DNA of 64,000 bases from positions 14,508,001 to 14,572,000 of the forward strand of contig OZ004610.1 in the NCBI GenBank assembly GCA_963924565.1, given 5' to 3'. The position numbers and the translations under genes were made by a program. The notes under the pieces are model-generated. The model was not told the origin of the DNA, ran no database searches, and saw nothing but the letters and a program-made list of their open reading frames with translations. Shown here piece after piece: positions 28,385-35,557 of this stretch. How positions within the stretch are numbered: the first letter of the stretch is position 1; each line of letters opens with the position of its first letter. The DNA is from Ascidiella aspersa. Lineage: Eukaryota.

Positions 28385-31300
28385 TTAGTCTTTGGAGCGT
28401 TTTCCTCGCAAATGATTCAATCGACGCAGAATGGCCGCTTTTCGACTTCCATTACCTTGGTTTGAAGGTATTATTTGAGGAAAGGACGGTTCAAGCTCCT
28501 TGTTCACTTTAACCGTATTTTGACGACTGGACAAATTGCTTGAACAGATTTCAGGAAAGTATATTTCGGGCGTTTTCCACCCCCTACGCTTTTCATCATA
28601 ATTATTTCCGCTCAATTTATCTGAGCCTTGCTGATCGGACGTGATACTTGTGACGATTGGAGGAAAAAATAGTTCAGCTGTTTTCCAAACCGTATTTACA
28701 CCAGAAGCTTCTTTACTCATTTCGTCTGATTTAGACCTTCCATTTGACTTGATTTCCCGATAAAACAGTTCTGGCGATTTCCACCCGTGAGACGACTTAG
28801 CTTTCGTTTTTCCATTGTCAGGTTGGGTGAGCTCTTCAGTGTCGTGGATGGTAATATTGTTTGTGCTATGGTCGTTGCTAAGTTCTATGTTACTCGCGAT
28901 TGTACGTTGTAGTAGAGTTTCAGGCGCCTTCTTTTTTCTAAAAAGTTTCTCACGCTGCTTAGGCATGATACAGGAGGCAACCCGGGAAAGAAAACTTATT
29001 TTTTTAGCAGGCGACCCAATTGGTTCGTACTCTATAGATTCCCTAATTTCGCCATTTCTACTTATTGGTTGTGATATCAAATAGAAATCTTCTGTAGGAG
29101 TGGTCGGGCTTTCGATTGGACAACGTTTCGTGGTATCAAAGTCTTCCATTGCGATGGTCTCATGGGGATTAAAACGTGTGCGTTGGGATGTTGCGGGGAT
29201 GAAAAATTCTGGCGATTTCCACCCATCAAAAGATTGACCTTTTTCAAAGCTTTCAAGATGACCTGCATCGTCCATTGCAACCGATTCCTGTGGCGTAGAT
29301 TTCATGCGCGGCGTAAGTCGCGGAAAGAAAAATTCGGGGGATTTCCAACCTGCTGGCGTTTTGTCTTTGGCATTAGGACAGGAACGATTGCTACGCCTTT
29401 TTGGGGGGGCATTTTTAGCTGCTCTTTTCACGTTCTGACCTTCAGGAGGCTCTGTGGTTCGAACTTGCAATGGCCTTTGATTTGCGTATTTTTTCTGAAC
29501 CTTTTTGTCACTTTTCTGTGAAGTAACATTAGAGGTGACTTGAGAACGCGCACTTACCCTTCGGTACGCCGGGTCGCGAGCGTCATTTAATGCGGATGTC
29601 TCATTTCGTGGTTTGCGTGTGGCCAAAAAAATTTCAGGAGATTTCCAGCCGTTTGACGACGCAGCCTTTATTTTCCGGCACCTAACCTCATCTTTGCTGT
29701 GGATTGGTCCGACATGCAATAATTTTTGAGCGGAAGTGACCTGCGATAATTTGGAGCGGATGTTACTCTTGTCCGCTACACTGCTGCGTATATTAGGCTC
29801 AACAACACTTTCGGGGCAAACTCGATTGCCGCGTAAGAATCTAGCGCGATTTTTCGGTTTAAGTTTTGAAGCAATTTGAGAAAGAAAGCTTCTGCTTTTT
29901 CTAGGTGACGCGTTGATGGCATCTTTCTTTAAAGGAGGTACAACCGAGCCTTTAACTGTGGCAAACCCATAGCCTATTTTCGACTCGGGGATGACTTCGT
30001 TGTCTCCAGATGCCTGTGTTTGTTCAGCGAAGTTGTCACTGGAACACTTCAACGCTAAGTATTCTTTAATATTGGTCGCGTCTTCATTGGTGGGATGGCG
30101 CGGCAGATGCAGAAACTCTGTAATCTTAAGGAGCCCCGCGTATCGTGTCGCAATTTTATTTTCGTTGTCGGATGGTGACTTCTTTGTCGGCGCTGGAACT
30201 CTGGGTATCTTTGTTTGGAAATGTTTCGGGCCATTGTTGAACTTCTTGTGTTTTAAAGCATCGCCAGATTGATTTCTCACATCTTTTACTCCTGCAAAGT
30301 ATGGCAATCACTTTACAATTACACTGTGTTGGGGATGTATATAGGAGATGTATAGTTAAACGCACGTTTTTCGTCTTTTCTGATTCGGTTGCTTTCAATC
30401 ATTTCCAACTGCTTTATATAACCGCTTTTCAGTTGCTAAAGACATAAGAGGGTACAATGGTTAAATTAAATAATTGATGAAAGTGGGATTACGCCTTATA
30501 TTGATTAACTTATTTTTCTTAGGCAAGTATCTGCTTAAAGCTGGCTTTAATTTATAACAAACATAGTAGTTTTACCCATTGCTAACGGTAACCAAAATTC
30601 AGTTTAAGCCACTACTGTTGATGAATTCGTCCTTGTAATCGACAATAAAACTCACCTCGAACAACTTAGGTATGCTTCCTTTCTTCTCCATATTGGTAAA
30701 GCGCCGTACGTCAACATTCCTTACAGCAAGAGGAAGTTGACGACATGATGCACTTGGATAATCCTTTCGCAGCCTTCTTGGTGGAATCAAGCTCTAATGA
30801 AAACACAAAAAAATAGTTGCAAAGAAATTAGTTAGTGGTCGAGTGCAACAGCGTGATCTACACAAACACTTACTGGTCTATTGGAAAGGCTTTTACGAGG
30901 AAGGAAAGTTGGAGCCAACACGTTTTGTCCTAAAGTTATTTCTTGCTCCTGGAAAAACATAAAGACTGAATAAAAATTTAATATCTAAATAAATTTCGAC
31001 ATAAACTGATTAGTATGTTTGAAAATAAATTAGGTTTCAAGATACACACGACGTCCACAATAACTATGCTGAAACACAATATACAATAATAAATCAGTCT
31101 ATGTTCTTTTATAAATTAAGCGTTTACGATACAGTTAGTGTATATATTTTTTTTGAATGTTGTGTATGTAGTAATGTACTGTGAAAGAATATATTGTTAA
31201 AATATCAAAGCACATTTGATAAAATTATCAGAAAAGAAATTGTTTATTTCGTTACCATGCCACGTGTTTTCCGTTCAACTGTTCCGTTTGTAGCCTGACT

Positions 31301-34300: not shown

Positions 34301-35557
34301 AAATTCTCCGGCTTTATGTCTCTAAACAATTCAAGAGCATAACAATACAAGATTAAAGCAACAAAACTAACATTTTTTGAGCAAACAATAGCAGGTGTTC
34401 GGTGGACAACTTTAAAAAATAAATATAACTAAAATTTATATCAAATATTTAAATTTACCTGTGCGCAATGCCGCGGTCATGCAATTGTTTCACTCCCTTC
34501 ACCATCTGAACGAAATATGCTCTGGCAACGTCTTCCTCCATATATTTTTTACCGGGATCCAAAGTGGCAATATGGCGACAAAATAAATCGTGGAAATCGC
34601 CTTCGGCAGCAAACTCCATTACAATGAAAACTCGTTTGCAGCCGACGAAGACGTCGAGTAACTGTATCTAAAAAAAAAATCCTGGTTTTAAGATAACGTG
34701 CGTCAATTTAAATAAATTTTTAACAACGTGCGTCAAGTTAAATAACTTTTTACATACGGTGTTTGGCGTATTTAGTTAAGGTCACTTTTTTAAACATAAA
34801 CTTTAAATACCCTACCGATATCCGTATTTGGATGATACCTTTAAGCTTTGCTTTCGTAATAATACTTCGTATTAATAATAACGTTTTTAGTAATACATTT
34901 ATATTTTTTAAGGTACTTTTTACGACCGCCAGTGATACTCGGCCATGTTTTATTTTGGGTCATAGCCTTATTGCTAATTAACGTACGATGTTGGGCTGTC
35001 CAAAAGTCTTGTCCAAGTTGGAAATTTCACCCGGGATGTACTTGGCGAGGCTATTTAAAGCAATGGCACCAACATCAGCATACACGATCTTAATCGCAAC
35101 CTGTATAAGTAACACATTAGAATCTTTAAAAAGTAGATAACGTAACATTGATATTTTATTTAAATTATATATTTAACGTTTGCTATAGCATTTGTCATGT
35201 TCACGCCATTTGCCATGATTACAAGTGCTGTTTTTATTTTTTAAACTAAACATCTCTGTTTTTTCATAAAACCAAAGAGCAAAGTTACTCAAAAAATTTC
35301 TCTTATGTTTAGTTAATATTAATGCAAACTTGTTAAACATAAAACAATATTAAGCAGTTACTAACCTTAAGCTGGCCATCTTCTGGGCAAGCGAGCATTA
35401 ATCTGTCGCTAGATTCGATTTTCTCCAGTGTCGGTTCGGCCAAAAACACGCGGCCCATATTTCCACCGCCCAAAAACTCATCGCTCACGTCATAACCCTG
35501 AGCTGAACAAATCTCTCTTTCCTTTGGCAAGACCAAATCCTGCCCGTGGTAATTCAT
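28385..35557 (-). CDS. TSSK: TSSK-like (CAMK group) Ser/Thr kinase with a basic, low-complexity C-terminal tail of over 1000 aa; ~1355 aa in total
   Basis: 16 GT-AG exons with consistent phases: 35557-35366, 35100-34987, 34667-34459, 34321-34100, 33937-33810, 33703-33588, 33514-33463, 33258-32996, 32607-32508, 32015-31863, 31791-31537, 31329-31256, 30948-30874, 30793-30656, 30435-30366, 30291-28385 (4068 nt). Kinase motifs are LGGGNMGRV, VAIK, HRDIKPEN, DLG, KTFCGSWDYVAPE and YDPFKADMWSLG. The kinase exons are high confidence; the link to the tail is inferred from splice phases. Confidence 0.8.

Follow-up and report, generated by a model that had tools for sequence, protein, structure and literature searches.

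A predicted active kinase of 1,355 residues with a long basic tail in Ascidiella aspersa, one of about 30 related loci with a likely origin from TSSK5

The window, a stretch of 64,000 nucleotides from Ascidiella aspersa, carries on its minus strand a kinase gene that is one of about 30 related loci and a mid-sized member among them, not a unique gene. In our preferred reading, held with slightly better than even confidence, its 16 exons constitute one frame of 1,355 residues in a family likely derived from TSSK5, and the product is a predicted active kinase with a likely role in spermatids or sperm, where its basic tail would probably place it on microtubule-based structures.

The spliced coding chain is 4,068 nt long with its sole stop codon at the end, and all 15 introns show GT-AG borders. 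The exons and two motifs of the tail are:

35557-35366, minus: exon 1, with the start codon, the glycine loop and, ahead of the VAIK lysine, a 16-residue insertion that the TSSK5-like gene of this genome has too
35100-34987, minus: exon 2, VAIK Lys68 and helix-C Glu89
34667-34459, minus: exon 3, kinase subdomains IV-VIa; Pfam Pkinase E 5.9e-08
34321-34100, minus: exon 4, Asp173, Lys175, Asn178, DLG, Thr216 and APE; Pfam Pkinase E 4.7e-12
33937-33810, minus: exon 5, kinase C-lobe
33703-33588, minus: exon 6, end of the kinase domain; 10 RNA reads at 33638
33514-33463, minus: exon 7, linker of 52 nt; most paralogues have a short exon here that also ends in phase 1
33258-32996, minus: exon 8, start of the post-kinase domain; 4 RNA reads at 33194 and 33224
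32607-32508, minus: exon 9, predicted, 100 nt, phase 0 to 1; the weakest link of the chain
32015-31863, minus: exon 10, phase 1-1; T-x-I-P-L-P-K-Y motif at 31953-31942
31791-31537, minus: exon 11, phase 1-1, which in part duplicates exon 10 and carries SxIP-like motifs (31723-31712, 31618-31607)
31329-31256, minus: exon 12, 74 nt; 8 RNA reads at 31299
30948-30874, minus: exon 13, 75 nt; SxIP-like motif at aa 640
30793-30656, minus: exon 14, 138 nt; SxIP-like motif at aa 652; 9 RNA reads at 30704
30435-30366, minus: exon 15, 70 nt, phase 0 to 1; 8 RNA reads at 30380/30382
30291-28385, minus: exon 16, terminal, 1,907 nt, 635 aa, basic and of low complexity, pI 10.0
28895-29011, minus: basic Cys-bearing helix-like motif, found in the terminal exon of sister genes too
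28559-29647, minus: six copies of W-K-[ST]-[PA]-E-hydrophobic-aromatic, starting at 29647, 29347, 29221, 28783, 28687 and 28579

The ATG of exon 1 is the start also in the paralogues, and the first two exons hold 102 codons, those of mammalian TSSK5 about 101 (PMC7401350). The sequence-only reading had held that the 640-codon frame 30307-28385 (minus strand) is probably no separate gene, and this is borne out by its TTG start and the internal acceptor ctttgcag at 30299-30292, both read in the sequence; small exons of 52, 70, 74 and 75 nt do link kinase and tail in frame, as it had also proposed. A comparison with other genes of the same genome (97 donors, 118 acceptors) puts 29 of the 30 splice sites above the 5th percentile, with the intron 5 acceptor slightly under. 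Starting from no more than exon 8 and the terminal stop, a chain finder whose training used different genes returned exons 8-16 exactly at two of three intron penalties; under the loosest penalty a 51-nt exon and a further intron were added. In the sister paralogues L017 and L018 the nine-exon phase series after the kinase is identical, and most paralogue chains include an exon of 67-70 nt with the phase of exon 15. Joining exon 14 straight to exon 16 breaks the frame.

A search of the genome with exon 4 gave 30 matches, one of them an unrelated TSSK, and a search with the post-kinase domain gave 32 matches at 29 places. Twenty-nine paralogues were modelled, and in 22 of them the kinase part, as far as it is covered, is free of stops and gaps. 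The predicted proteins of the family have about 1,020-2,090 aa, with tails that vary about two-fold in length. We found no published report of an expansion of the TSSK5 branch, and TSSK5 is described as single-copy with no notable duplication (PMC8042308).

Alongside one catalytic core the family has a conserved post-kinase domain of about 150 aa. The first 60 or so of these residues are encoded by exon 8 (match at 33068-33247, E 6e-09), and the second half is lost in this copy. The domain matched no Pfam family (14 members searched) and none of 7,997 protein candidates, in a word-based search that has little power to show absence and whose collection may be poor in tunicate proteomes; its two matches among PDB sequences have E values of only 0.87-0.98, and the Atlas search gave no usable match. 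None of 172 matches to its pattern in metagenome contigs was confirmed, and the best E value in the frames downstream of the TSSK5-like gene L092 was 0.87. An AlphaFold model of the domain has a mean pLDDT of 42, too poor for a structure search. Intron 8 contains a repeat element, in which inverted-repeat ends were looked for and none found.

The kinase is predicted to be a catalytically competent Ser/Thr enzyme, with a complete set of G-x-G-x-x-G, Lys68, Glu89, H-R-D-x-K-x-x-N, the Mg-binding Asp, Thr216 and APE. DLG is found in place of DFG, as in most of the family, and the activation-loop Thr216, which precedes a CGS/CGT motif, is Ser or Thr in the aligned paralogues. Kinase and post-kinase domain are under purifying selection (dN/dS 0.17-0.29); the tail evolves at two to four times the rate of the kinase, with dN/dS still below 1 (terminal frames 0.41-0.90; values could be computed for 11 of 12 pairs). 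Pfam matches to UBA and KA1 domains are lacking in the 14 exon translations of the gene that were searched.

The origin of the kinase was analysed in a tree of 40 kinases, where 15 of the 29 paralogues and the partial references L104, L105, L110 and L111 were left out, and the second PLK locus (L114) was dropped as the stretch taken holds no kinase domain; the reference rows are this genome's own kinases, named from their motifs. The family is supported at 100/100 and lies inside the TSSK clade at 100/98, apart from MARK, AMPK, BRSK, SIK, HUNK, CHK1 and PLK, so that the first assignment as a TSSK-type kinase stands. The AU test rejects grouping with AMPK/BRSK (p 0.0003), with MARK/SIK (p 0.0004; one of five introns is common with MARK), with PLK (p 0.0009) and with CHK1 (p 0.024). 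PLK3, the top PDB match for exon 4 alone, and CIPK/RSK, top for the exon 4 profile, were rejected, on the tree and the AU test for PLK, as artefacts of a 73-residue piece. The 120 of 194 exon 4 matches listed are mostly unnamed and plant kinases, with no tunicate or named TSSK5 among them.

Within the clade the family is sister to L092 (96/89), but the AU test does not reject placing it with the other TSSKs instead (p 0.071). The distance from glycine loop to lysine is 39 residues in L092 and in the 12 family rows listed, and 23-28 in the 17 other kinases listed; five of five or four of five kinase introns (two counts) are common with L092, and at most two with each of the 17 other kinases. 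The identity to L092 is only 34%, hardly higher than that to MARK and CIPK (32-33%), and the Atlas label for an exon of L092 is generic kinase only. We label L092 as TSSK5-like from published descriptions and motifs, not from an aligned TSSK5 sequence. The third glycine of the ATP loop, Ala in L092, is present in the family. Tssk5 is described with a subdomain-II insertion (PMC8042308) and a degenerate ATP-binding glycine loop, and as the G-x-G-x-x-G is intact here the family is filed as TSSK5-derived, not as TSSK5 itself. Descent from TSSK5 is likely on these sequence grounds. The stem branch of the family is long, at 0.79 changes per site.

Scallop Tssk5 has 731 aa, 12 exons and a pI of 9.79 (PMC8042308), and oyster TSSK5-like proteins have 529-574 aa (PMC6905558). 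The earlier statement that TSSKs are of 270-370 aa is thus wrong for the TSSK5 branch. Of the proposed lineage-specific kinase of about 1355 aa, the single gene and its length hold, but it is one of about 30 loci, and since mollusc TSSK5s already reach 529-731 aa and are long and basic, a long tail by itself is less new than claimed. The family resembles TSSK5 in its multi-exon gene, subdomain-II insertion, basic C-terminal extension and introns common with L092, and differs from it by the roughly 30 extra loci beside a parent-like gene, the lengths of about 1,020-2,090 aa, the post-kinase domain and the DLG. TSSK1/2/3/4/6 and dTSSK share the kinase clade and the activation-loop threonine, but have about 290-370 aa, 0-4 introns elsewhere and no subdomain-II insertion.

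That the tail has no relative in public protein sets is supported, with no match among 1.84 billion representatives or 5,959 longer candidates and none to Pfam families; the protein searches were word-based, weak for absence, and may include few tunicate proteomes. Inside the family there are relatives. When 2,859 segments from all six frames of the window were compared with a profile of five sister terminal frames, the Cys-bearing motif was the top match (E 1e-06), with a weaker second copy at 29923-29807, and a sister-exon profile finds exon 11 best (E 0.0017) and exon 10 second (E 0.021); the shuffle controls of the tail profiles gave 6, 1 and 0 of 1,000. The description of the tail as repeat-bearing was right as to the six W-K-S/T-P-E copies, which are private to this gene; other motifs are the ones that recur in paralogues. 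Six of the eight genome-wide matches to W-K-[ST]-[PA]-E lie inside this gene, the two others are in frames of 11 and 13 codons, and the repeat is absent from paralogue tails and is therefore no family trait. The repeat may resemble ERK docking sites or the APE segment of the kinase, and one K-K-I-S-F site around aa 1150 may resemble a PP1 docking motif.

The basic tail contains six [ST]-x-[IL]-P sites, and five of them pass a basic, acid-free, low-complexity filter of our own, set after the motif had been seen; 0.46 are expected, none of 500 shuffles matches this number, and one of 12 control motifs also reaches five. Three of the copies stem from one internal repeat. SxIP-like motifs are found in seven of seven genes of the same branch and in none of seven of the other. 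On the tree this seven-to-none split is one event. EB1 has a single locus in the genome, and a predicted EB1-peptide complex scored 0.02, a value that speaks neither for nor against binding, as the controls were not folded. TTBK2 has an N-terminal kinase and a long tail without other domains but with several SxIP motifs (PMC4555816). The protein studied here is similar in its N-terminal kinase and long tail with SxIP-type motifs, but TTBK2 is a CK1-type kinase, not of the CAMK/TSSK group, and its EB binding and plus-end tracking have been shown, while here they are predicted from motifs. It is possible, though less likely than not, that the motifs, in basic context, dock on the C-terminal domain of EB1 and so bring the kinase to the growing ends of microtubules, as happens with TTBK2. 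In a more general version the tail, with its pI of 10, would attach to chromatin or to the acidic tails of tubulin. The tail is likely a targeting module and may be a scaffold, and the duplicates would then differ mainly by tail, that is in address and partners, with the catalytic core and post-kinase domain kept.

The same data bear on a rather unlikely alternative, one long protein whose tail is a loosely constrained basic spacer or filler, binding tubulin or DNA by charge only or serving as its own phosphorylation substrate, with motifs that have no partners. The two-fold length variation, motifs that differ by branch, the missing Pfam matches and outside relatives and dN/dS values of up to 0.9 are all in keeping with it. 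So are differences to two other DNA sets, where 12 of 20 in the tail are non-synonymous among the substitutions listed. The kinase domain has five of five, giving 17 of 25 coding differences among the 40 of 147 substitutions listed, none of which makes a stop, and for this excess between individuals relaxed constraint fits as well as positive selection. All seven in-gene indels among the 12 of 14 indels listed are intronic, though exons make up 57% of the span, and this, like the lack of stops among the coding differences listed, supports the exon model. A spacer is less easily reconciled with two tail motifs that stay in order across copies about 0.6 changes per site apart in the kinase, with an [ST]-x-[IL]-P-x-P-K core retained in three subgroups, or with W-K-S/T-P-E residues kept while the Ser/Thr and Pro codons vary.

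The RNA evidence is one run, assigned by species label and without a tissue label, and shows transcription only. Single-strand RNA, indicating minus-strand transcription, covers both kinase and tail exons, but depth is 0 in a clean bin holding 64 nt of exon 9 and 1.6-3.2 per exonic base in exons 8, 10 and 11, versus 4.8-10.9 in exon 16, that is 0-3 across exons 8-11 and 5-11 on both flanks. This would suit a split or shortened locus, in which the kinase transcript ends around exon 8 and the tail exons belong to a separate or minor transcript; translation continuing past the exon 8 donor would end 12 codons further on (frame 33316-32957), no junction read is found among the 15 of 59 joint-table rows listed (all 15 are DNA contigs), and exon 8 is where half of the post-kinase domain is lost and the intronic repeat adjoins. 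We regard such a split as improbable, as one bin inside the kinase (exons 3-4) also drops to 1.3, dips in animal RNA data are by the caveat of the depth tool not findings, and no pile-up of read starts or ends is reported. Both exon 9 splice sites score within the normal range, the chain finder chose this exon unaided, a 109-nt exon matches its phases in sister genes, and kinase and tail have been copied together in 8.6-kb tandem units on contig C3. We therefore keep the single frame, with inferred splicing across exons 8-10. Intron 14 has no RNA reads at 30647, 30592 and 30546, and the last intron has two (30363 and 30309); if it is retained, a 735-aa form should result.

Expression in testis and a role in spermiogenesis are suggested by analogy to the TSSK family: scallop Tssk genes including Tssk5 are expressed in testis (PMC8042308), Ciona sperm flagella contain a TSSK (PMC4427456), and short termini steer the localisation of Drosophila dTSSK (PMC10164148). 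That the family left the sperm programme for somatic cilia, oocytes or immunity, or consists of catalytically weak scaffolds, is the least probable reading, to which the unlabelled RNA run, the long stem branch, the DLG, a Botryllus tsk transcript placed in oocytes too (PMC4523013) and a mouse TSSK5 that may be inactive as a kinase (PMC7401350) lend something, against complete catalytic residues, the low kinase dN/dS and the testis enrichment of all studied TSSKs in the cited literature.

A wider scenario goes beyond our preferred reading and is put forward as speculation that we consider unlikely. A tunicate lineage would have multiplied the normally single TSSK5 about thirty-fold and added a new post-kinase domain and swappable tails of 700-1,700 residues; the SxIP branch would be EB1-guided sperm-building kinases convergent with TTBK2, the other branch would use a different repeated motif, and tail turnover under sperm competition would re-address the core. 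Lineage-specific bursts of reproductive kinases are already a known pattern, and basic long TSSK5 tails are known in molluscs. The mouse Smok sperm-motility kinases and the nematode sperm TTBK-like genes are such expansions, from MARK and TTBK/CK1 respectively. They share with this family the lineage-specific multiplication of a kinase gene, tandem copies and pseudogenes, and differ in origin, MARK being rejected here, and in their tie to sperm, which for this family is a prediction.

TSSK5 is the least understood TSSK, and its human gene is a pseudogene. The roughly 30 derived copies under purifying selection, with a full catalytic set, suggest that an active and expanding sperm kinase is possible within the TSSK5 branch. 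With one kinase on a range of tails, the family is a natural series in which to study how TSSKs reach their site of action and their substrates, and the domain that follows the kinase, unmatched in the collections searched, is a further asset.

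The kinase gene could be rebuilt as 16 exons on the minus strand, from 35557 to 28385, with all 15 introns of the GT-AG type and 71–492 nt in length. The joined frame of 4,068 nt encodes 1,355 aa and its sole stop is the terminal one, as expected from the sequence-only reading of one in-frame chain of about 1355 aa; the small exons of 52, 70, 74 and 75 nt were found, and the 640-codon frame has both the TTG start and the inner acceptor ascribed to it. Because a hand-picked chain always matches its own phases, the exon chain was tested in three ways. With splice-site matrices trained on 97 donors and 118 acceptors from other genes of the genome, 29 of the 30 splice sites exceed the 5th percentile of the true-site scores. 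A chain finder, also trained on other genes and given exon 8 and the last stop alone, recovered exons 8–16 without error when the intron penalty was 9 or 12, and at penalty 6 its chain had one more exon, of 51 nt, and one more intron. The closest paralogues, L017 and L018, show the same post-kinase end phases as the kinase gene (0, 1, 1, 1, 0, 0, 0, 1, then the terminal exon), with a 67-nt exon at the place of the 70-nt exon. It is very likely that the kinase and tail exons give a single long protein, and at the sequence level the observation is confirmed, with splicing across exons 8–10 as a prediction.

Tail profiles were made from five sister loci, the kinase gene excluded, and searched against the window's 2,859 six-frame segments. 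The terminal profile picks exon 16 (E 1e-06, runner-up segment 0.4) and a second profile picks exon 11 (E 0.0017) and exon 10 (E 0.021; runner-up segment 2); the order matches that of the sister loci. Pairwise shuffles of the tail matches gave 6, 1 and 0 of 1,000, the middle exon having been picked after a hit was seen, and plain BLAST of the tail was marginal, with 29.3 bits against a maximum of 27.7 in 30 shuffles. Judged by sequence comparison, the tail belongs with the kinase as one gene. The pattern W-K-[ST]-[PA]-E has 8 hits genome-wide, 6 of which are repeats in this tail that vary at the Ser/Thr and Pro codons; none was found in the paralogue tails, and the repeats are evidently an addition private to the kinase gene.

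RNA came from one run with the same species label, about 6% sampled, which placed 473 records on the window. Outside three repeat-rich zones the cover is single-stranded, extending from the 35425–35741 bin to the 28134–28450 bin, and its strand is the one expected of a minus-strand transcript when a standard stranded library is used. No pile of RNA starts or ends was reported in the kinase gene in this run, and no junction reads occur among the best 15 of 59 joint-table rows, all 15 from DNA contigs. The sites of intron 14 have 0 reads against 8–9 in the adjoining exons; intron 15 has 2 against 7–8, and partial retention, with a protein that would then stop at 735 aa, is therefore possible. 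Depth is 0 in the bin holding 64 nt of exon 9, which counts against the gene model, and per exonic base it is 1.6–3.2 in exons 8, 10 and 11 versus 4.8–10.9 in exon 16; a bin inside the kinase (exons 3–4) is likewise low, at 1.3.

Coding differences in the kinase gene number at least 25 in the best 40 of 147 rows (8 synonymous, 17 non-synonymous, 0 stops), and the indels among those listed are intronic in 7 of 7 cases. In the kinase C-lobe (33902–33638, aa 258–311) 5/5 of the listed differences are non-synonymous, which is odd beside a paralogue kinase-domain dN/dS near 0.25. At 30363 and 30309 the RNA reads and both other DNA sets differ from the window; one change lifts the intron-15 donor score from 5.0 to 6.5, and the other abolishes the stop that directly precedes the 640-codon frame's TTG.

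Other features in and around the gene, where the high-copy repeats reach a summed contig depth of up to 40,000–85,000 versus 50–95, are:
23478–27203, plus strand, NXPE-family gene (Pfam NXPE4_C E 6.6e-48, Neurexophilin E 3e-04), tail to tail with the kinase gene and ending about 1.2 kb from its stop
32642–32934, intron 8, very high-copy repeat, sitting at the point from which the latter half of the kinase gene's post-kinase domain has been lost
33274–33403, intron 7, very high-copy repeat
35866–35993, 29-nt duplication and 13.5-copy hexamer repeat, about 310–440 nt upstream of the start codon
about 36080–36360, upstream, very high-copy repeat
42222–42740, minus strand, frame rich in glutamine, proline and histidine, containing polyQ runs and without a Pfam match

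The genome searched consists of 308.6 Mb in 75 contigs, the window lying on contig C4. It has a glycoside hydrolase family 6 match that passes the Pfam cut-off, whereas 0 of 14 control genomes have one; this indicates a tunicate, since in animals the domain is known from the cellulose synthase of tunicates. Exon 4 matches 30 places, and a paralogue's post-kinase exon matches 32 stretches at 29 places. The 29 paralogues modelled are on contigs C1, C2, C3, C6, C7 and C9; in 22 the kinase part taken is free of stops and gaps, exon 1 being wholly or largely missing from that stretch in four of them, and seven look broken (L019, L022, L030, L032, L050, L051, L052). Introns at codons 102, 171, 245 and 288 are present in 26 of the 29, and C3 carries five copies at 8.6-kb spacing, each with kinase and terminal frame together. 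All family members have a post-kinase domain of about 150 aa directly after the kinase, of which the kinase gene retains about the first 60 residues; it gave 0 matches in Pfam, PDB sequences, Atlas, 7,997 protein candidates and metagenome contigs, and its predicted structure model was unusable. Rough full-length chains of 16 paralogues measure 1,024–2,085 aa in 15 cases and 632 aa in the broken L022, and the 1,355 aa of the kinase gene is mid-range for the family. The sequence-only interpretation is upheld in part: the long tail is real but not a one-gene novelty, being a family trait on a TSSK5 background already bearing tails. Pairwise dN/dS, computable in 11 of 12 cases, is 0.17–0.29 in the kinase and post-kinase domain and 0.41–0.90 in the longest downstream frame. 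The terminal frames of L047, L048 and L049 (C7 and C3) are single, of 1,028–1,515 codons, and open with a conserved acidic block. L045–L047 have DFG, the remaining members DLG.

Reference kinases were spliced from the same genome and given presumptive names from their motifs. A tree of 40 rows unites the family in a single clade (100/100) whose sister is L092 (96/89), with both inside the TSSK clade (100/98), and the kinase gene is sister to L017/L018/L020 (100/99). The proposed TSSK type is upheld by this phylogeny against MARK and AMPK: unions of the family with MARK/SIK, PLK, AMPK/BRSK or CHK1 were each rejected by the AU test, and union with the five other TSSKs was not (p 0.071). Independent of the tree, L092 has 5/5 kinase introns in common with the family when spliced with the kinase gene as query and 4/5 when the query is a canonical TSSK, compared with at most two in 17 other kinases, and the distance from glycine loop to lysine is 39 residues in the family and L092 versus 23–28 in other kinases. 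Identity between family and L092 is just 34%. PMC8042308 characterises Tssk5 by a subdomain II insertion, a multi-exon gene and a protein that is long and basic; on these marks L092 is called TSSK5-like and the family TSSK5-derived, a class set by published description, and an origin of the family from TSSK5 is probable. The same paper describes Tssk5 as single in vertebrates and invertebrates, duplication not being notable, and PMC6905558 mentions a TSSK1-like gene of a tunicate that has 7 coding exons. Such a family was not found reported in the titles, abstract openings and text passages covered from the open-access literature on TSSK5 and other TSSKs, ascidians and tunicates, kinase expansion and SxIP motifs.

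Two further TSSK-type genes, L036 and L113, of which one lacks introns and the other has two, lie head to head at C6:32894809-32897146 with about 300 nt between them. Dozens more kinase-like matches of 25–40% identity are densely clustered on C2 (1.3–2.8 Mb), C3 (32.7–37.9 Mb) and C4 (29.3–29.4 Mb), which suggests other expanded kinase families in the genome.

The catalytic residues of the kinase gene are a complete and conserved set, and an active kinase is therefore likely. The tail (aa 321–1355) has a pI of 10.1 and six SxIP-like sites ([ST]-x-[IL]-P), five of which pass a basic, acid-free context filter of our own post hoc design against 0.46 expected (0/500 shuffles). Three of the sites belong to a single internal repeat, and an equally high score was reached by 1 of 12 control motifs. 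The core T/S-x-I/L-P-x-P-K is preserved in three subgroups. SxIP-like sites are present in 7/7 genes of this branch and 0/7 of the other, a split that is a single event on the tree. The terminal frames of the other branch (L023, L024, L026, L028, L031, L035) carry a P-x-P-P-K motif; in L024, L026 and L035 it recurs, with S-A-A-R-K-R-R after it. One locus for EB1, the microtubule-end protein, was found in the genome. Through its SxIP motifs TTBK2 binds EB proteins and tracks ends (PMC4555816), and affinity for EB1 is increased by basic residues that follow the motif (PMC12695022). TTBK2 has the same layout of kinase and SxIP-bearing tail, but its binding has been shown whereas that of the kinase gene is read from motifs. 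The SxIP-like sites would dock on EB1 as in TTBK2, giving end tracking, a step that we predict tentatively; that the long basic tail would target the kinase specifically is moderately likely. From the TSSK family alone, a role in spermatids or sperm would be fairly likely.
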